In this document: piece by piece, positions 3,012 through 29,605 of the stretch
Layout of the letters: each line of letters starts with the position of its first letter
Numbering within the stretch: the stretch's first letter is position 1
IMG/VR virus record: IMGVR_UViG_3300032075_000007
Span: 1 to 43,694 of that record
Source: a virus
Taxonomy: Duplodnaviria; Caudoviricetes
Reading direction: 5' to 3' (one strand)
Length of the DNA: 43,694 bases
Position numbers and translations under genes: made by a program
Notes under the pieces: generated by a model
Told to the model about the DNA's origin: nothing
The model's database searches: none
The model's input: the letters and a program-made list of their open reading frames with translations, nothing else

Positions 3012-4463
3012 ATGGAGACTATACGCGAGTTTCCGCTCGATGAGATTACCCTCGACTACAGCATGTATGGCCGTGGCGAGGTCAATACGGCCCGCGTCGC
3101 TGCCTTGACCGAGATCTATAAGGAACGCCCCGAGACCTTTGAGCCACTCCGGCTCTGGGTAGATGGTGGCATCATCAAGCTCTGTGATGGCTTTGCGCGC
3201 TATCTGGCCGCACAGGCTGTTGGTCTCATACAAGTAGCGGGCTTCATTGATGAGGCGATCCAGAGCGCGAAAGCCGCCAAACGTGCTAGCATGCGGCACA
3301 ATACGTTGGAGAAGGATGCGATCCCGAGGGGACGCATTGATGCGTATATCATCGAGTCCTGGCGGGATGGAATGACGGCGAGAGAGATTCAGATTGATGT
3401 GAATAAGACCCAGGCCTACATCTCAGCAGTGCTGAAACCCTTTCGGGAAATGGAGACATGGATACGGGATCTGGATATTCTCCGTCTCCACTTGGCAGGG
3501 TATACGGATGCGGAAATCGCAGAGGAGCTTGGCGGAGATATTGGCGCATCAAGAGTACCGCAGATTCGTCATAATTTGTTTTTGGAAAAACAAATTATAG
3601 CTATTTTAGAGGAATCCCGTCCCGACTACGTTGCTATCCGCGATGATCGCCTTGGCGCCCACCTCCTGAATCCCTGGGAGCCACCACCGTTGAACTTCAC
3701 CCTCGACACTCTGACAGGGATGGACATCGTTGAACGTACAGTAGAACCTGATGATCCTTATATCATCTATGGCAGCTCCTACTGGAGTTTTGGTGCTGAC
3801 CTTGCGCAGTATGGGACCAACCATTATCCGGGGCGCATCCCTGGGAAAATTATCGAAGGATTGTTACATCTCTATACCAAACCCTTTGAGAATGTCTATG
3901 ATCCGTTTGCGGGTGGCGGAACGACGCTGGATGTCTGTAAGGCCTATTTTCGGCGCTACTGGGGCAGCGACATTGCTCCACTGGCAACCAGGCGAGATAT
4001 TCGCCAGCATGACATTCTGAGCGGTGCGCCTAGTTTCTTTCCCCAGGGTTACCGCATGAAATTCATTATGCTCGATCCGCCGTATTGGGCACAAAAGAGA
4101 GGGGAGTATTCTGCGGATGAGAGGAACCTTGCGAATTTATCGTTGCACCAATTTTATGAAGCGCTGGATGCCGTTCTGCTCACATGTAAGAGCCTTCTTA
4201 CCAAAGACGGCGTCATTGCCCTGCTGATCGGCCCCACACAAAATGGCCAACGGTATGACCATGCGATTGATATCTGTAAACGGATGGATCGCCTCGGCCT
4301 CACGTTAATTAACCGGCTCATCGTCCCCTACTCCATGCATCAGGTGAAGGCCTATCATGTGACCCAAATGCGTGAAACAAATAGGCTTGCGGATACCAAC
4401 GCGAAGAAGCGCCTGTGCAAGCGGTATCGGGATCTTCTTGTGATGCAGTCGCAGGAGTTGTAG
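3012..4463 (+). CDS. ParB-like N-terminal domain + HTH + DNA amino-methyltransferase (N6A/N4C)
   Basis: ParB-like LCDGFARYLAA; HTH-like GMTAREI and GYTDAEIAEELG; YPGRIP, motif I DPFAGGGTT, motif IV LDPPYW. Confidence 0.85.
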   Translation: METIREFPLDEITLDYSMYGRGEVNTARVAALTEIYKERPETFEPLRLWVDGGIIKLCDGFARYLAAQAVGLIQVAGFIDEAIQSAKAAKRASMRHNTLEKDAIPRGRIDAYIIESWRDGMTAREIQIDVNKTQAYISAVLKPFREMETWIRDLDILRLHLAGYTDAEIAEELGGDIGASRVPQIRHNLFLEKQIIAILEESRPDYVAIRDDRLGAHLLNPWEPPPLNFTLDTLTGMDIVERTVEPDDPYIIYGSSYWSFGADLAQYGTNHYPGRIPGKIIEGLLHLYTKPFENVYDPFAGGGTTLDVCKAYFRRYWGSDIAPLATRRDIRQHDILSGAPSFFPQGYRMKFIMLDPPYWAQKRGEYSADERNLANLSLHQFYEALDAVLLTCKSLLTKDGVIALLIGPTQNGQRYDHAIDICKRMDRLGLTLINRLIVPYSMHQVKAYHVTQMRETNRLADTNAKKRLCKRYRDLLVMQSQEL

Positions 4464-8495: not shown

Positions 8496-8924
8496 GTGAC
8501 CACGCAAGTTTTCGACAAGGCCCTTGAACTTTTAAGTCCAGGTGCCGCGCTGGCTGCGACCGGCAGCAGCACGGGTGTGCTCCTCTACCCCCGTCAGTTC
8601 CCGACGTGCGACTGGGTAATCTACGCGTCAGGTGTGGTGGCAACGGGTACCTACACGCTGAATCTTCAGGTGTCTGATCTCGTCGGCGGGACCTATACGA
8701 CCATCGCCTCCGTGACCTGGCCCCCCGCCGTCGCCGGAGGCAAGCTCCATGTTGCCATTAACGGGGCGCAAGCCCAATGGCTTGATAATGATAGCAAGTT
8801 CATCCGCGTCAACTATGTCATCGGTGGCGCCACGCCGGGCATTGTGCTCGGATCGTACATTGGGAAAGCCAGCAACAATGCGGGTTTGGCAGTGGACGTG
8901 GGTGACATCTACACGTTTGTATAG
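8496..8924 (+). CDS. Putative capsid decoration/cement protein
   Basis: AAGGAG RBS, beta-rich 142 aa, first structural gene after capsid. Confidence 0.55.
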   Translation: MTTQVFDKALELLSPGAALAATGSSTGVLLYPRQFPTCDWVIYASGVVATGTYTLNLQVSDLVGGTYTTIASVTWPPAVAGGKLHVAINGAQAQWLDNDSKFIRVNYVIGGATPGIVLGSYIGKASNNAGLAVDVGDIYTFV

Positions 8925-11539: not shown

Positions 11540-12379
11540 TTGGGAAGTTTATCTAATTATGCCGAGGACGCCCTTTTAAACCATATCTTCAATACGGCTT
11601 ATAGTTCTGTTGCTACCGTCTATGTGGCACTCTCGACCGGCACGCTGACCGATACGTCTACGGGTGCCAGTATGAGTGAAGTCGCCAATGCCAACGGCTA
11701 TGCGCGCACGGCGGTGACTTTTGGCGCGGCGGCGACCCGCAAGGTGATCCAGAGTGGTGCCGTGACGTTTCCGCAGGCCTCGGGGTCCTGGGGCACGATT
11801 ACGGACTGGGCCATTGTCGATACGAATACGTACGGTGCGGGCAATATCCTGGCCTACGGCTCCTTTACGGCCTCGTTTGCGCCCGTCACCGGCAATACGC
11901 CCACGATTCCCAGCGGCGAGTTGCAGGTCATCTTTAATGCGTCATCAGGCGCGGGGTTTGTTGATGTCTGTGTGCATCTGCTGCTGAACCGCATGTTTCG
12001 TAACCAGGCGTATACGAAGCCGGCAACCTATATTGGACTGGCGACGGCGACGATTGCCGACACCGCCGCGACCGAAGCGAACGTGACGGAGGTCAGCACT
12101 GCGGCTACCGGGTACGCCCGCAAGCTCGTCAATATTAATGGCGGGGCCGCGCCCACCTGGACCAACGCTAGCGGCGGCGCGCTCGATAATGTCGCCGCCA
12201 TCACGTTTGCGACGCCGACGGCCTCGTGGGGCACGATTACGAGCTGCTTTATTATCGATAGTGCGAGTGGGGCTGGGAACATTATCGGCTATGACAATTC
12301 CTCAATTGTCGATCAAACTGTAAACGCATCTGATACAGTCCAATTCGACATTGGGGCGTTCGATGTGGCGATAACGTGA
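11540..12379 (+). CDS. Phage tail-fibre-like structural protein with two tandem domains
   Basis: AAGGAG RBS, TTG start; two copies of YxGL..EV...GYAR...TF....SWGTIT...D...GN. Confidence 0.75.
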   Translation: MGSLSNYAEDALLNHIFNTAYSSVATVYVALSTGTLTDTSTGASMSEVANANGYARTAVTFGAAATRKVIQSGAVTFPQASGSWGTITDWAIVDTNTYGAGNILAYGSFTASFAPVTGNTPTIPSGELQVIFNASSGAGFVDVCVHLLLNRMFRNQAYTKPATYIGLATATIADTAATEANVTEVSTAATGYARKLVNINGGAAPTWTNASGGALDNVAAITFATPTASWGTITSCFIIDSASGAGNIIGYDNSSIVDQTVNASDTVQFDIGAFDVAIT

Positions 12380-18206: not shown

Positions 18207-18599
18207 ATGCCCACCATTCCCTTGTTGTCCACGACCCTGCTCGAAGCCACGACCGGCCTCCTCACCTTTACGCTGGTTGATAGCGACGGCGCTGGCGTGC
18301 CCGTGTCCATGTTGAGCACGGTGACGCTGACGTACTATGACGTGATCAGTGGCACGATTGTGAATAGCCGCAATGCGCAAAATGTCCTCAATGCCAATGA
18401 TGTGAGTATCGTAACGGCGGGCTCACCAGCGGTGACGACCGTCGAATGGCAAATTCAGCCCGCCGATACGGTGATGGTCGATGCCGAGCTGGCGTTAGAG
18501 TACCGCGTGGCGCAATTTCGCTGGACCTGGGATAGCGGCACGCGCCATGACGCCTATCAGGTCCAGTTTGGGGTCGAGAATATGGCGTTTGTCATGTGA
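18207..18599 (+). CDS. Hypothetical structural protein
   Basis: GAGGTG RBS, beta-rich 130 aa. Confidence 0.7.
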   Translation: MPTIPLLSTTLLEATTGLLTFTLVDSDGAGVPVSMLSTVTLTYYDVISGTIVNSRNAQNVLNANDVSIVTAGSPAVTTVEWQIQPADTVMVDAELALEYRVAQFRWTWDSGTRHDAYQVQFGVENMAFVM

Positions 18600-18775
18600 G
18601 TGCTGGCTCGCAAAAAAAGCCGTGTCATTCCCCGAGCACTGTGCTAGCCTTTGCGCATCATCTTCGGTAGTCACTGGTCGCCCGACAGTCTCCGGGTAAC
18701 ACACACCGCCGTATCGCAGTGAGGTCCATGTCCCTCGCTGTGGTCGGCGGTTGTTGTGTTTCTGGAGGTTGCGCC

Positions 18776-19018
18776 ATGGCAGACGCTCCGTACCTTGCTG
18801 AATCCTGGTCCGGCCTGATCCAATTCCGCTGTCCCGCCTGTGGGTATGATACCCTGCTCCAAGCCCGCATCGACGCGCACATGGCGCAGTGTCCCCGCTA
18901 CCAGGCCGCCCTCCATGAGGGGACCTTGCGGGCGGGCGAACCGCCGGTGCCGCCGCCCCCGGAGCCTGACCCGGATGAGGAGCCCACACCGGCGCAGCCG
19001 ACGCCTGCGGGGGCGTAG
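18776..19018 (+). CDS. Small zinc-finger protein with Pro-rich tail
   Basis: GGAGG RBS, ATG 18776; CPAC...H...C. Confidence 0.6.
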   Translation: MADAPYLAESWSGLIQFRCPACGYDTLLQARIDAHMAQCPRYQAALHEGTLRAGEPPVPPPPEPDPDEEPTPAQPTPAGA

Positions 19019-19021
19019 GCC

Positions 19022-19039
19022 ATGCCCACCCAAGCCATT
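19022..19039 (+). pseudogene. Relic 5' end of the tail-tube gene (MPTQAI) at the insertion junction
   Basis: ATGCCCACCCAAGCCATT encodes the same MPTQAI as 20343 and 21839, in GC3-rich codons. Confidence 0.75.
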
Positions 19040-19045
19040 TTGGGC

Positions 19046-19080
19046 AAAAAAAGAGGGTACGAGCATGATACCCGTACCCT
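19046..19080 (-). terminator. Intrinsic terminator of the cassette
   Basis: Minus strand AGGGTACG-ggtatcatgct-CGTACCCT-C-T7. Confidence 0.85.
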
Positions 19081-19090
19081 AGCCTCTCAA

Positions 19091-19168
19091 AGCGTAGCAC
19101 AGCGCAACGCAACACAGCAAAACGCAACAGAGCCCAGCATAGCGTATCGTAGCACAGCACAGCGCAGT
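19091..19168 (-). ncRNA. Pentamer array 1, putative gapped-code guide RNA (GCU/GUU/GAU + NN, 15 NN)
   Basis: Plus strand A(G/A/T)C-NN with strict 5-nt period, starting at the RAMP stop codon; NN match 20415-20459 with every third base skipped. Confidence 0.75.
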
Positions 19169-19735
19169 TTACAGAGGCATGCTCTGGTACCGTCCGAAAC
19201 GTGGACGACTTTCCAGCAAGCCAATGGTATGCCCGCCAATGGCCACAAAGGCGTCAATATCCGAGCTGTTCAACAGTTCATCGTTGAAGGCAATACAGAT
19301 CTGGACCGACCAGGGGAAAAAGACGGGGCGTGTCCGCATAACACGCGATCGTTCTACCACCATGGGCGTACGATCACGAAATCGTTCATCGTTCCACAAT
19401 TCCATAGGATCCGTTGGGCCATCATAGGTCAGGCGAAAATTGGTCTCGCACACCAATCCCGCCTTAGCTTTGGGGCCTTTCTTCAGGGTTTTTGCCGCAT
19501 TGATCAACGTCGCCTGCATGCCGCTCGCAGGAATGCACGGTTGTCCCTCATCCAAGTAGAGCGATCCCAGCCATTCCAGACGAGCGATTTCTTCATGATC
19601 GGCTTCGGTCTTCATGCGTTTCCCCGAAATAGCCTTAATGGCTTTCGTCCAACGGTTCAACGGGTCGGCGAGTTGTCCACAATGCATCATAAGGGGCACT
19701 ACGCCGGTCAAGTGATATCCGCGTGTTTGTTTCAA
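19169..19735 (-). CDS. Stand-alone RAMP/Cas7-like RNA-binding protein
   Basis: GAGGTG RBS, TTG start; LTGVVPLMMH, CIPASGMQATLINAA, MRTRPVFFPWS, Gly-rich loop GGHTIGLLESRPRFGRY. Confidence 0.7.
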   Translation of the reverse strand: MKQTRGYHLTGVVPLMMHCGQLADPLNRWTKAIKAISGKRMKTEADHEEIARLEWLGSLYLDEGQPCIPASGMQATLINAAKTLKKGPKAKAGLVCETNFRLTYDGPTDPMELWNDERFRDRTPMVVERSRVMRTRPVFFPWSVQICIAFNDELLNSSDIDAFVAIGGHTIGLLESRPRFGRYQSMPL

Positions 19736-20042
19736 GCGTCACCTCGATATACGTGGTGGTTAGTAACACGGCAGGCCGTACGGACAGGTTCTGGAGTGGA
19801 GGCAGTGCCCGACCAGCAAACCGCAGTCGGCGTTGATGGTCTGTCACCACAACATGACAGGGCTGACACAGAGTTGTCAGATCGTCCAGGGATTCCTGGC
19901 CAAAGTGGAGATAGGTCCGGTGATGGCACTCAAGCGCATCCGGGCTATTACAAAGGCGACAACGAAAATTGTCGCGCTGGAAACAGGCCAGACGCATGGC
20001 CTGCCAATAGGGGCTTTGATAATGCGAGGCATCGAGGGGCAT
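19635..20042 (-). CDS. Small HNH endonuclease within the cassette
   Basis: RDNFRCRLC...LECHHRTY..GQE..DDLTTLCQPCH; 3' end overlaps RAMP start by about 100 nt. Confidence 0.85.
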   Translation of the reverse strand: MPLDASHYQSPYWQAMRLACFQRDNFRCRLCNSPDALECHHRTYLHFGQESLDDLTTLCQPCHVVVTDHQRRLRFAGRALPPLQNLSVRPAVLLTTTYIEVTLETNTRISLDRRSAPYDALWTTRRPVEPLDESH

Positions 20043-20058
20043 AGGGGCCTTTCTCGAA

Positions 20059-20141
20059 AGCAAAGCTGAGCCGAGCTCAGCTCAGCCGAACCGAACGCAG
20101 CATAGCTCATCGCAGCCGAGCACAGCAGAGCTCAGCATAGC
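20059..20141 (-). ncRNA. Pentamer array 2, putative guide RNA (16 NN)
   Basis: 17 A(G/A/T)C trimers at exact 5-nt spacing, starting at the RHH stop codon. Confidence 0.7.
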
Positions 20142-20276
20142 TTAAGACTTCTGCTGCTGGAGGTACGCATCAATGGCCCGGCGCAAGACCTCGGAAAAAG
20201 AGAGGCCGAGCTTCTTTGCCAGGGCAGTTATGGCCTGAAATTGTGGGACACTGAGCATCACTGATATGCGCTTCAT
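20142..20276 (-). CDS. Ribbon-helix-helix (CopG-like) regulator, 44 aa (not in ORF track)
   Basis: MKRISVMLSVPQFQAITALAKKLGLSFSEVLRRAIDAYLQQQKS. Confidence 0.85.
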   Translation of the reverse strand: MKRISVMLSVPQFQAITALAKKLGLSFSEVLRRAIDAYLQQQKS

Positions 20277-20312
20277 ATGCTAATCATACAGCATATGGGC
20301 ATACCTTGTCAA
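20274..20312 (-). promoter_or_regulatory. Cassette promoter (probably leaderless) with inverted-repeat operator
   Basis: TTGACA 20312-20307, 18 bp, TATGAT 20288-20283, ATG 6 nt later; CATATGC-10nt-GCATATG spans the -10. Confidence 0.7.
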
Positions 20313-20342
20313 CGATGAGTTTAGGCTATACGGATATATACT

Positions 20343-20999
20343 ATGCCTACTCAAGCTATATCAGCATTCGGCATCGCGTTACGGTTAGGGGATGGTATCC
20401 CGGCTGTTTTGAATATTACTTCTGCGACTAATACTAGTCCAATTGTCGTCACCACCGCCGCCGTGCACGGCATTGTGGATGTCTCCAAAGTCACCGTCAC
20501 GAGCGTTGCCGGCAATACGGGCGCCAACGGTACCTGGATTGCCGAGGCCGTCACGCCTACGACTGCCCGCCTGCGCGGCTCGGTGGGCAATGGCGCGTAC
20601 ACGTCGGGTGGGGTCTTTACCTTAGATAGTACCTATGCAACCATTGCCGAGGTGACGGATATCCAGGACGCGGGCATCATGGCGTCGGTCATTAACGTAA
20701 GTGCGCATGACGGCATAGGGGGATGGGGGTCACAAATCCCGACCATGCTCTCCAATAACAGTATGCGGCTCGTCCTCAACCACGTCCCCGACCATGCCAC
20801 GCATGATGAAGTGACCGGCTTACTCTACTTGATGGAAAACCGCATACGCCGGCCCTATCTCCTCGTATTGCCTAATGCTACTAAGACAACATGGTGGATG
20901 TCGGGGTGGGTCACTGGTTGGCGTGATCAGGCCCCGGTCGCCGGGGCCCTGACGGGACAAGTCACATTTGAATTTGATGGAGCACCGATTTTGGCCTAG
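20343..20999 (+). CDS. Tail tube-like protein with inserted FCCH-like beta domain
   Basis: IAEVTDIQ..INVSAHDG..W.SQIPTML..FEFDGAP matches the 21839 gene; insert ITSATNTSPIVVTTAAVHG...GNTGANGTW. Confidence 0.75.
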   Translation: MPTQAISAFGIALRLGDGIPAVLNITSATNTSPIVVTTAAVHGIVDVSKVTVTSVAGNTGANGTWIAEAVTPTTARLRGSVGNGAYTSGGVFTLDSTYATIAEVTDIQDAGIMASVINVSAHDGIGGWGSQIPTMLSNNSMRLVLNHVPDHATHDEVTGLLYLMENRIRRPYLLVLPNATKTTWWMSGWVTGWRDQAPVAGALTGQVTFEFDGAPILA

Positions 21000-21676
21000 C
21001 CCCGCTTGGCATATGGTTTAGCTGGGGCCACTGTCAATAGCAAAGGTTGTACGGGAACGAGAGGCGCCTTCGCATGTTTCTTGGAGTTGCAGGATTGACA
21101 GGCAGGAACCACATTCGCCAGCGTGTGCGAGCCGCCCTTACTGAGTGGGGTAATGTGGTCTTGGGTCAGTCGTTTCATCTTGCGATGGCAATAGACGCAC
21201 CGATGCCCGTAGGCGGTCTTGATTTCTTCCCACTGCGCGGCGGTCAAGTCGTTGAGGGGAGCCTCAGTACGGGCGACACGTCGGCGCTCGGTCTTTTCTT
21301 GTATCCATTCAGGATGTTGCGCGTACCAGTCGGCATGCTTTTGGCGCATAGCCATACGGTGCGCCGCATAGTATGCCGCACTCTGGGCATTCATCAAGGC
21401 TTTGTTTTGTACGTAGCGGGTCTTATTGCGTATCTGTTTCTCCGCTTTGTGCGTCTCATCGTAGGCTTGCCGTTTTTCAGGGTTTTCGCGTTGCCAGCGT
21501 GCGACCGCTGCGCGTACCTTGTCGCCATTGTGTGCACGATACTGCGCACTTTCTTGACGTTTACACAGAATACAGCGCGTAGCTTTGCCGTCGCTGGTGT
21601 ACTTGTCGGTACCAAATTCATCGAGCGGTTTCAGCAGATTGCATCCACGACAGACTTTTTTTGCAGGGGTTTCCAT
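20996..21676 (-). CDS. HNH homing endonuclease 2
   Basis: KVCRGC..KPLDEF..CILC; YGHRCVYC..LTQDHITPLSKGGSHTLANVVPACQSCNSKK; AGAAGG RBS favours ATG 21676. Confidence 0.9.
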   Translation of the reverse strand: METPAKKVCRGCNLLKPLDEFGTDKYTSDGKATRCILCKRQESAQYRAHNGDKVRAAVARWQRENPEKRQAYDETHKAEKQIRNKTRYVQNKALMNAQSAAYYAAHRMAMRQKHADWYAQHPEWIQEKTERRRVARTEAPLNDLTAAQWEEIKTAYGHRCVYCHRKMKRLTQDHITPLSKGGSHTLANVVPACQSCNSKKHAKAPLVPVQPLLLTVAPAKPYAKRG

Positions 21677-21784
21677 GGGCACCTTCTAACTAAGGTTGAG
21701 GTGAGTACCTGGCTCCCCACTGAGTTAGCAGCAGAGACTTGATCGAACGCTAGCAAGGCGATCACCAAGTACCCGCTGAGTATA
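21677..21784 (-). promoter_or_regulatory. TATACT -10 and structured leader of HNH2
   Basis: -10 21779-21784; P1 GGGUACUUGG/CCAGGUACUC; loop CUAACU complementary to AGUUAG in the RBS hairpin. Confidence 0.6.
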
Positions 21785-21838
21785 GCCTAGTAGCGCAGAT
21801 AAAGATAGGACATTATCTTAGTATAGAAAGGATTAATT

Positions 21839-22240
21839 GTGCCCACTCAGGCAATTGCGGCTACTGGTCTTGTTATGACTATGGCTGGGACGCCTATCCC
21901 AGAAATAACTAACGTGTCGGAAATCGGGGCTCAGTTCAATGTGGTCGATGTCTCGAGTCATGATGGGGGCGATTGGGCGTCCAAAATCCCCACCTTGCTC
22001 GATGGGGGCACGATTCGCGTCTCCGCCAACTTTGTCCCCGCGAATGCGCAGCATGTCGCCTTACGCACGGCGATGATTAACCGCGCCTCGACGGTCTTTA
22101 CCGTGGTCTTTCCGAATACCGGCGCCACGACCTGGACCTTTAACGCGTTTGTGACGCGCTACCGGGTACCGTCCGCACCGGTCAATGGCGCGCTGCCCTT
22201 GGAATTTGAGCTGACAGTTGACGGGGCCGTAACTTTTTAA
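21839..22240 (+). CDS. Major tail tube protein
   Basis: VDVSSHD..W.SKIPTLLDGG..F.AFVT...LTVDGA; precedes chaperones. Confidence 0.85.
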   Translation: MPTQAIAATGLVMTMAGTPIPEITNVSEIGAQFNVVDVSSHDGGDWASKIPTLLDGGTIRVSANFVPANAQHVALRTAMINRASTVFTVVFPNTGATTWTFNAFVTRYRVPSAPVNGALPLEFELTVDGAVTF

Positions 22241-22615: not shown

Positions 22616-23092
22616 ATGCCGTCTCTTGTTGCCCTCGTGCCCGTTGAGTTGGATAAGCTACGCCAGCTGCTCTTTACGCGGGCGGCGGTCAAGGCCATTG
22701 AATTAACCCTCACACGCATCTGGGGGCGGGATTATACGTTCTTTGAGGCAGTACGGCGGCTCAGTGAAATGCTCCTCGATAACGACCTGAGCAAGCTCTC
22801 GTTTGTGAATATCAGCGTGCTCGTGTGGCAAGGTTGCCTGCATGAAGACCCGACGTTGACGCTCGCGCAGGTCGAAGAGGCTCTGCCCTATGCCGATCCT
22901 ACGGGGCTCATTCCCTATGCGGGGCTGATTCTTCAGGCGTGGAGCAATGCGAGCCCGCAGGTGGCCGTGGATGCCGTTGGGGTCGAGGCAGAGGCGACAG
23001 ACAGTGACCCTTTGGGCGGATCGACTGGGGCAAGCTCTGGGCCTTTGAACGGACCTGTCTTGGCGTCAGCGACGGCGAGTTCTGGAGCATGA
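22616..23092 (+). CDS. Tail assembly chaperone (G-like)
   Basis: Between tail tube and tape measure; contains slippery site. Confidence 0.75.
   Translation: MPSLVALVPVELDKLRQLLFTRAAVKAIELTLTRIWGRDYTFFEAVRRLSEMLLDNDLSKLSFVNISVLVWQGCLHEDPTLTLAQVEEALPYADPTGLIPYAGLILQAWSNASPQVAVDAVGVEAEATDSDPLGGSTGASSGPLNGPVLASATASSGA
23008..23014 (+). other. Programmed -1 frameshift site C-CCT-TTG giving a G-T fusion
   Basis: XXXYYYZ heptamer in correct phase; -1 frame open as GRIDWGKLWAFERTCLGVSDGEFWSMTF into 23089-23364. Confidence 0.75.
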
Positions 23093-28582: not shown

Positions 28583-29605
28583 TTATGTAATATGAGTCCA
28601 GGTTTTACGGTGGATAATAGCAAACAGTGGATTATTCGTTAAGCCAAAGATCGTCCGTAGAAGGGGATAGCCAAATCCTTGTGTGGCTAAGAGACGAATC
28701 ATGGTGATATCGGCTGGCGTCATTTTGGCACCAAACACTTGTTGTCCACGAACGGGATTACGACGTACATGAGCGCGTCGTCCCTTGCGATAGGAATCTT
28801 TCGTATTGTCTGAGGGAGTGCCTTCCCAAAGATGGGCCGGATTAACACAGGGCGGGTTATCGCACGTATGACAAATAACATGGCCTTCTTTGATGATGGT
28901 GTCATTCCACAATGCATACATTACGCGTGATGTCAGTTGAAGTTTCTTTTGAAAACGGACGACTCCATAGCCCTTTTTACTTTTAGCTTTCTTCCAGAGC
29001 CAGCAACAGTCTGGGCACGGGAAGGGATGGGCACATTGTTCGATAGAACTCCAAAAATAGTCTTGGAATGTCTTGAGGCTTTTATGGTGGTCTGGCGTAC
29101 GGCGTCCGTATTTGCGATAGGTCCTCCCATAATGACTTTGACACGTTCGACATAGATGGCTTTTGCCATCTTTATGAGCGGTTACAGTGGAAAACATAGT
29201 GAAAGGTAAGGTTCTTAGGCACGCATGGCATTTTTTGGTAGGAGTGCCTTCGGTAACATCTCGTGCTCCATATTGTTCTTCAAAGGACACGCGGGGTTTG
29301 TGCCATTCTTGGAGACGCCCCGTCCCACGAGAACGACGATTGCCATCGGTATTGTTCTCAGCGCGGGTACAAAGATAGAGATGGCTCGGGCGGACACAAT
29401 GACGGTTACGACAACGATGAGCAACGATAAAACCAGGAAGAATGGGGCCATAGGTACGAATCCAGGCGACACGGTGCGCGAGGGTACTTGCCCCCTCGAA
29501 ACGGACACGACCATGTCCGTATGGTGTTATAGACCCAGTCCAGAGCCAACATTGCCGTGTTTTATGAACTTTGTGCCAGAAAAGGGTATCAGCGTGCGAG
29601 GTCAT
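28583..29605 (-). CDS. HNH homing endonuclease 4 (two HNH domains)
   Basis: AHRCRNRHCVRPSHLYLCT and CHTCDNPPCVNPAHLWEGT separated by a Zn-finger. Confidence 0.9.
   Translation of the reverse strand: MTSHADTLFWHKVHKTRQCWLWTGSITPYGHGRVRFEGASTLAHRVAWIRTYGPILPGFIVAHRCRNRHCVRPSHLYLCTRAENNTDGNRRSRGTGRLQEWHKPRVSFEEQYGARDVTEGTPTKKCHACLRTLPFTMFSTVTAHKDGKSHLCRTCQSHYGRTYRKYGRRTPDHHKSLKTFQDYFWSSIEQCAHPFPCPDCCWLWKKAKSKKGYGVVRFQKKLQLTSRVMYALWNDTIIKEGHVICHTCDNPPCVNPAHLWEGTPSDNTKDSYRKGRRAHVRRNPVRGQQVFGAKMTPADITMIRLLATQGFGYPLLRTIFGLTNNPLFAIIHRKTWTHIT

Follow-up and report, generated by a model that had tools for sequence, protein, structure and literature searches.

A VIPR cassette at the beginning of a phage tail-tube gene, with a first guide that nearly spells that gene: a candidate for RNA-guided intronless homing

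Why should an array of short guide units nearly spell, in a gapped code, the very gene into whose start it is inserted? The question is raised by a soil phage of which a stretch of 43,694 nt (hereafter the window) carries a cassette inside the start of a tail gene. Our analysis identifies it as a VIPR cassette at the beginning of a tail-tube gene, its first guide nearly spelling that gene, and suggests, with a probability that we put at roughly 0.6, that it spreads by RNA-guided intronless homing. The anatomy of the cassette, the stub and replacement start on its two sides, the empty sites of relatives, the decoded match and the related cassettes that point at their neighbours can be read off the DNA directly; the copying is what we propose.

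The cassette and its insertion site

The features of the region, in window coordinates, are these.

18776..19018, plus strand: small upstream gene, 80 aa, directly abutting the tail-tube gene in empty-site relatives
19022..19040, plus strand: orphaned stub of the original tail-tube start, 6 codons and 1 nt, at the left end of the insertion
19046..19080, minus strand: intrinsic terminator after array 1 (12-pair stem and T run; fold z -3.9, 0 of 200 shuffles)
19089..19168, minus strand: array 1, 16 pentamer units (RNA G-C/U/A-U plus NN), the guide that decodes to the neighbouring gene
19169..19735, minus strand: vipr gene with a TTG start, for a guide-binding protein of RAMP fold, 188 aa (by homology to SUSP1 Vipr and by model)
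19635..20042, minus strand: gene for a small HNH nuclease of 135 aa, which at its 3' end runs into the vipr start (22.8 bits with Pfam HNH against a cut-off of 21.4)
20057..20141, minus strand: array 2, 17 units, without a located target
20142..20276, minus strand: ribbon-helix-helix (RHH) gene, 44 aa (Pfam RHH_1, E 1.2e-06)
20274..20312, minus strand: sigma-70-like promoter, 11/12, overlapped by an 8-nt perfect inverted repeat
20343..20459, plus strand: AT-rich segment that replaces the start of the tail-tube gene (codons 1-39) and holds the decoded site
20343..20999, plus strand: tail-tube-like gene, 218 aa (PHROG 158, E 4.6e-05; homologues with PF08813, PF16461, PF16190)
20412..20458, plus strand: decoded target, codons 24-39, with mismatches at codons 25, 27 and 31

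Read along the minus strand, the order is promoter, RHH gene, array 2, HNH gene, vipr, array 1 and terminator, and genes, control signals (promoter and terminator) and scaffold units are intact throughout. The RHH product is likely an autorepressor and the inverted repeat at the promoter likely its putative operator. The His/Cys catalytic motif of the HNH protein is invariant across 36 aligned relatives. Over the 33 units of both arrays the scaffold trinucleotides are GCT (24), GTT (6), GAT (2) and ACT (1). A conserved structured 3' tail is a feature of VIPR guides; here the hairpin after array 2 is weaker than, and unlike, the terminator hairpin after array 1, and a comparison with Rfam gave no match. 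The interrupted gene encodes a protein with a small N-terminal FCCH-like domain and a major-tail-protein domain.

VIPR systems consist of a Vipr protein and a vrRNA (bioRxiv 10.64898/2026.04.26.720920, 10.64898/2026.04.26.720927, 10.64898/2026.10.15.759431); their published text describes a silencing weapon between phages, assigns the nuclease forms to host defence and, in 10.64898/2026.04.26.720920, names HNH among the Vap domains. The 188-aa protein of the window is 31-32% identical over 178 aa (E 7.7e-24) to SUSP1 YP_009199429.1, a protein named as Vipr in 10.64898/2026.10.15.759431, and its model (pLDDT 95.7) finds its best folds among the Csm3/Cas7 RAMPs (Z 10.0, rmsd 3.8, 142 aligned). 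The pentamers beside vipr, 16 and 17 of them, combine a fixed trinucleotide with a variable NN as in VIPR, and distant members of the same Vipr protein family carry GGC/GGT units. By homology and predicted fold, then, the cassette is a VIPR system made up of a repressor, an HNH nuclease, a homologue of SUSP1 Vipr and two arrays.

Our scans for relatives of Vipr gave 183 loci (the best 80 of 218 viral matches, 79 from the best 80 of 363 metagenome matches, and 24 of 24 genome matches), which form 135 clusters, 15 of them without a called array. Among the matches listed, 103 of the 119 clusters with enough sequence have an HNH gene in front of vipr. The canonical type II guide has a GGY scaffold, and no GG unit occurs in either array of the window. 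Moreover, W178 of SUSP1 Vipr, which stacks on the second G of the unit (10.64898/2026.04.26.720927), corresponds to Ser here. In 112 clusters with a readable motif (8 further clusters were unreadable, and all come from the best-match lists just given), this position is Trp in 86, of which 84 have mostly G at the corresponding place of the unit, and Ser, Glu or Gly in 20, of which 19 lack the G; because the latter are largely one clade (19 rows, support 98/94), we count this covariation as about one event. Types III and V, the nuclease types, would lead one to expect a defence-island setting without a self match; the cassette lies in a phage tail module and matches its own neighbour at 13 of 16 units. 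We therefore file it, on these sequence features, as a divergent VIPR outside type II.

The sequence-only reading that preceded this analysis had supposed that related phages carry a cassette-free allele, and they do: at 17 of 19 tail-tube loci the small upstream gene is joined straight to the tail-tube gene. Of the other two, L018 is too short to tell and L007 carries a large HNH gene, in an insertion of 1 kb, at the cassette's junction. The stub is identical at 19 of 19 nt to the gene start of the empty locus L005. Beyond the cassette, third-position GC is 0.41 in codons 1-39 of the tail-tube gene as against 0.68 in codons 40-218, the same segment having 0.49-0.67 in six empty alleles and 0.44 in L007. 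Codons 1-40 are nearest to the L007 allele (104/120, against 84-90/120 in 16 others), so that the replacement segment is one shared with a conventional HNH insertion. The cassette is thus an insertion in the start of the tail-tube gene, with a 19-nt stub before it and an AT-rich replacement start after it. This layout is what is new here; the code and the wobble skipping are known.

The tail module holds two more antisense HNH genes (20996-21839 and 28583-29605, both on the minus strand). The first is followed by a second tail-tube gene with a GTG start and an AT-rich beginning, a layout like that of the VIPR cassette. Upstream of the head module lie genes for a DndB-like domain protein and a DNA methylase (1314-2516 and 3012-4463).

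The first guide, its target and the alleles of the target

When 15 plus-strand dinucleotides of array 1 from position 19094 are laid against 20415-20458 with a one-base skip, 27 of 30 nt and 12 of 15 units agree. This wobble-skipping match to the adjacent gene had been noticed from the letters, and it stands up well: 300 shuffles of the unit order give best scores of 18-23, and 0 of 100 shuffles of the window contain a match at three or fewer mismatches. Skips of 0, 2 or 4 reach at most 21/30, and with a skip of 3 nothing but the array itself exceeds 21; computationally, the one-base skip alone yields an outlier outside array 1, in frame with the tail-tube gene. The runner-up on both strands of the window, 22/30 at 12059, falls within the null and was rejected as a target. 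Could the match still be chance similarity to a low-complexity motif rich in Ala, Thr and Val? The motif is common in this domain, and the exact 15-unit pattern occurs once in the viral contigs, at 30/30, in an unrelated phage protein with the same small domain. Against this stand the shuffle and window controls, the replication at other genes described below and an independent guide, that of L106, to the same site, and we find a chance match hardly credible.

Array 1 as properly scaffolded has 16 units (19089-19168), which match 20412-20458, a predicted site some 70 nt inside the gene, at 29 of 32 nt and 13 of 16 units. The mismatches fall at codons 25, 27 and 31 (units 2, 4 and 8), G-U wobble rescues none of them, and the eight 5' units of the guide are perfect. 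An extension by two units, Leu-Asn, had also been put forward. Half of it survives: the AA unit at 19089 is the sixteenth unit, but the CT unit at 19084 lacks a proper scaffold and faces TT, a G-T wobble rather than a match, and agrees with Leu23 only at the amino-acid level. That array 1 would act as a minus-strand guide agrees with the promoter, gene order and terminator, and the skip falls on codon position 3, as in the published VIPR rule (identity over nine alleles is 0.85, 0.89 and 0.47 at positions 1, 2 and 3). The one-base-skip code, the wobble skipping and the argument that synonymous changes offer no escape, arrived at here from the sequence, are already published for VIPR.

The resident mismatches are not an assembly error, since contigs from five soil RNA runs span the target with zero differing letters, three of them joined to array 1 in one piece; the RNA-run contigs of this region carry no strand, end or level information. 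Among the contigs of 8 runs no joint skips the cassette, which is not evidence that such a joint is absent. Contigs of three runs start at 18669-18673, below a promoter-like stretch (18625-18673), a weak hint of an internal transcript start.

It had been predicted that cassette-free homologues would match perfectly and that the carrier escapes its own guide by three amino-acid changes. No perfect tail-tube allele was found: the best protein alleles, like the best of 71 homologues scored, reach 14/16, and a relaxed target pattern retrieved only the L007 contig from the viral contigs. Among 17 empty close loci, three of the L002-L004 type score 30/32, one base above the carrier's 29/32, while the other 14 score 25-28/32 and are worse; on total score cassette-free homologues match the guide scarcely better than the resident allele does. 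Of 27 close protein alleles we left out 4 shorter ones, and in the remaining 23, compared with the carrier's 13/16, 6 are better, 9 equal and 8 worse. In these 23, Ile25 occurs 19 times, Ala27 17 times, Ala31 19 times and Ser32 twice. Ile25, being the majority state, is no private escape change; Ser27 and Thr31 do depart from the majority. At the Ser32 unit the guide matches the carrier but only 2 of the 23 alleles.

In SUSP1 pairing begins at the guide's 3' end (10.64898/2026.04.26.720927), and in the 8 units nearest that end the carrier has 3 mismatches, where 16 of the 23 alleles have 0-1, two have 2 and five have 3. The two alleles that are closest outside the target (97-98% identical) score 14/16, above the carrier. 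Self-protection of the carrier by mismatches is thus only partly borne out by the comparison of alleles. Thr31-Ser32 is common to the carrier and the L007 allele, which lies behind a different nuclease.

That last observation bears on a decidedly unlikely alternative, in which array 1 is the relic of a homing guide: target and guide would have drifted apart, the mismatches would have been inherited with the foreign segment, and the cassette would no longer discriminate. The majority status of Ile25, the Thr31-Ser32 shared with L007, the 104/120 agreement over codons 1-40 and the poorer match of most empty alleles all suit such a relic. It sits less well with genes, promoter, terminator and scaffold units that are all intact and with the better match of the closest alleles; poorly matching survivors, moreover, would be expected after successful homing as well.

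The self match, 81% of units and 91% of bases, lies above the published 80% target threshold, and the text of the discovery paper (10.64898/2026.04.26.720920) reports no self match of at least 80% in types II, III and V. The resident allele may therefore still be bound by its own guide, and one could imagine self-regulation, the guide binding its own tail-tube gene and damping late transcription, for example in a lysogen. The eight perfect 5' units, together with the threshold, would allow this, and in SUSP1 binding to either strand represses (10.64898/2026.04.26.720920). We nevertheless regard it as improbable: no self match is perfect, a better match can be had in empty alleles, binding to itself would be risky next to an intact HNH, the sites and matched genes of related cassettes show no regulatory theme, and the cassette is absent from most relatives.

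Related cassettes and the genes beside them

We compared the best array of each cluster with its own locus, using shuffled guides or 83 foreign flanks as controls. Among the matches listed, 12 of the 22 clusters that share the window's unit type are significant against shuffled guides (adjusted P <0.05), as are 16 of the 98 GGY clusters; against foreign flanks the figures are 11 of 22 and 14 of 98 (about 5 expected for GGY). Leaving out the window, 10 of the 21 other cassettes of the same unit type point at their own flank, where about 1 is expected among the matches listed. In 11 of 21 there is no significant flank match, several having short flanks. A significant match of L117 lies inside its own HNH gene and was left out of the count (602-643, 3' part of the gene, 8 of 14 units); that guide is probably aimed at a relative's cassette. 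L115 beats all 83 foreign flanks but fails correction for its 11 arrays; in the cassette of L113 and L115 (6550-7777) there are thirteen arrays, and only the last targets the neighbouring gene.

The matched neighbours vary. Among others, L105 matches the same tail-tube gene at another site, the L024 group a downstream chaperone-like gene, L118 and L119, from either side, a homologue of the window's gene at 18207, and L114 a gene that we read as DXS-like. The nearest Vipr kin of the window (82%) adjoin other genes. A stub and a new start occur also in L019, L106 and L120, and the stubs of L106 and L120 stop within about three codons of the decoded site; the short stubs were identified by eye, and an automatic search for duplicated gene ends was clear in only 2 of 20 loci (L112 and L120). 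The L106 guide is an independent guide to the window's target site, as found in alleles of a more distant group (L105 and L018, 31/38). At one junction L105 (1825) and L106 (815-909) carry two cassettes with different guides, the L106 guide matching the L105 resident at 31/38, which suggests competition of cassette against cassette.

Two further cases are instructive. In L112 the cassette sits inside its own decoded target: ten units match the upstream gene at 20/20, and the next nine match, at 17/18 (0 of 2000 shuffles), an orphaned gene end beyond the cassette, this second half being read across a one-base scaffold slip that we placed by eye. Homologues read through the junction in one frame, so that what the L112 guide spells is the allele without interruption. 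The recoded gene now resident there reaches 31/38, and the viral contigs contain no DNA relatives of the L112 gene. The cassette beside the chaperone-like gene (L007, L011, L012, L019) likewise has a stub and a new start, and over its 19 units the carriers score 30/38 and nine of 11 empty loci 33-34/38; five loci lack the gene. The remaining two empty loci, L003 and L004, score 29/38, worse than the carriers, with a carrier-like, poorly matching segment at 8548, which may reflect resistance acquired in the cassette's absence. In the window itself the chaperone-like gene (22766-22822) matches an L019-type guide at 34/38, making this phage a candidate recipient, on the strength of the match, for such a cassette. 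A resistant carrier and a sensitive empty allele, as homing endonucleases have, would fit the scores of L112 and the chaperone cassette; for the window the alleles give a mixed picture. A uniform 3' seed rule was rejected, as L112 and the chaperone cassette differ: in the L112 resident allele the ten 3' units are perfect, so the position of mismatches is not uniform among cassettes.

Most arrays, array 2 of the window included, point away from the flank. For array 2 no target was found in the window or in the relatives' loci, 11 of its units have 0 exact matches among viral contigs, and 0 of 5 related phage records match at 3 mismatches; decoded against the template strand, it looks protein-like. 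Such extra guides likely serve ordinary conflict between phages, and one may ask whether array 1 is any different. As an ordinary VIPR weapon it would silence or destroy a rival's tail gene to the benefit of the whole phage, the cassette having arrived by ordinary recombination and not being copied. This is VIPR's published role; most arrays are not flank-directed, one L104 array matches a distant, non-adjacent tail-region gene of relatives at 24/28, and self-sparing is described for guides that target vrRNA (10.64898/2026.10.15.759431). A weapon of this kind does not account for guides that match the gene next door at so many separate insertion sites, nor for the stubs, the replacement ends and the split target of L112, and we judge it unlikely.

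A homing reading and its place among known systems

How could such a cassette be copied? The array would be transcribed from the minus strand and coated by Vipr, its NN units pairing with the coding strand and skipping codon position 3. During co-infection, or superinfection of a lysogen, the HNH protein would be recruited by the Vipr filament and would nick or cut the related phage's allele, and repair from the carrier would copy the cassette together with the replacement gene start, an intronless homing event in which the flank is co-converted. What would spare the carrier are the three mismatches of its own copy, which lie in the guide half that pairs first, and with another guide the cassette could be directed at a new neighbouring gene.

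We favour homing because 17 of 19 relatives have an empty site and L007 an ordinary large HNH at the same junction; because 10 of 21 other cassettes match their neighbour, the target of L112 is split and empty chaperone alleles match better; because stubs and new starts recur, HNH adjoins vipr in 103 of 119 clusters and the nearest Vipr kin sit elsewhere; and because the carrier's mismatches lie towards the 3' end of the guide, from which pairing proceeds in SUSP1. Against homing count the lack of a perfect tail-tube allele among those compared, with 14 of 17 empty close loci below the carrier and the best one base above it, the position of L003 and L004 below the chaperone carriers, and the 11 of 21 cassettes without a flank match. 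More generally, we hold it an even bet that a clade of VIPR-HNH cassettes consists of reprogrammable phage homing endonucleases, each new insertion with its own guide against the neighbouring gene of related phages, proof against silent change.

With VIPR as described in the available text the cassette shares a homologous Vipr, pentamer arrays flanking genes, the skip of the wobble position, carriage by a phage and an HNH among the Vap domains. It differs in its G-C/U/A-U scaffold instead of GGY, in the RHH gene in front, in a guide that matches its own neighbouring gene at 81% and in an insertion with stub and replacement gene end; the nuclease types are presented there as defence of the host rather than as selfish elements carried by phages. 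Non-canonical units are reported in 10.64898/2026.10.21.760802, whose available text does not list that of the window. The published text of the VIPR papers examined shows no cutting by VIPR, and the word homing is absent from main texts and supplement text, though figures and data files may show such loci among the seven types; a search for literature joining VIPR with homing found none.

Free-standing homing endonucleases such as T4 SegF, SegG and MobE cut a neighbouring gene away from their insertion, discriminate self from non-self through substitutions and leave a co-converted flank (PMC2988022, PMC13565253). Here too a nuclease gene, intact in the window, is present or absent between conserved genes (17 of 19 loci are empty), with the predicted target in the neighbouring gene. 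Their specificity comes from a protein DNA-binding domain, whereas here it is predicted to come from a codon-wise guide RNA, and the window's cassette has extra guides aimed elsewhere. On the homing reading, the programmable OMEGA / TnpB nucleases of IS605 elements would share the principle that an RNA-guided cut of the element-free site drives copying of the element by recombination (PMC13565253, PMC10690162). They differ in that the window's cassette has no visible transposase, RuvC protein or transposon ends, its three proteins being RHH, small HNH and RAMP rather than a RuvC-fold TnpB or IscB in an IS element, and in that this cassette would rely on a multi-subunit RAMP filament, a gapped code and, as target, a diverged allele in the neighbouring gene.

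These cassettes provide natural sets of guide, target and resistant allele for a compact Vipr and HNH pair, with which nuclease activity, mismatch tolerance and homing become directly testable, and guides that track new insertion sites bear on how VIPR guides are written. If the homing reading is true, the pair would be a very small programmable cutter, needing a subunit of 188 aa, a nuclease domain of <100 aa and 80 nt of guide, a selfish gene drive guided by a RAMP would be a natural role of a CRISPR class 1 ancestor, and the guides would record a guide-writing mechanism.

Some further observations concern the spread of the family. L111 and L134 carry two VIPR-HNH cassettes about 4.3 kb apart on one contig. 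In P0050, a single sequence, HNH and Vipr are fused in frame (290 aa, without Vipr's first residues); it may be an error, and a weak search found no longer forms. A Vipr relative (P0005, 83%) and a tail-tube relative (P0142, 54%) bear locus tags close to each other on a single NCBI contig that is labelled Nitrospiraceae; this is probably a further cassette at this tail-tube gene and a hint of the host group. Finally, the cultured mycobacteriophage LittleE (L208, genes 33-34) has a Vipr homologue and GGY arrays, antisense in its tail module.
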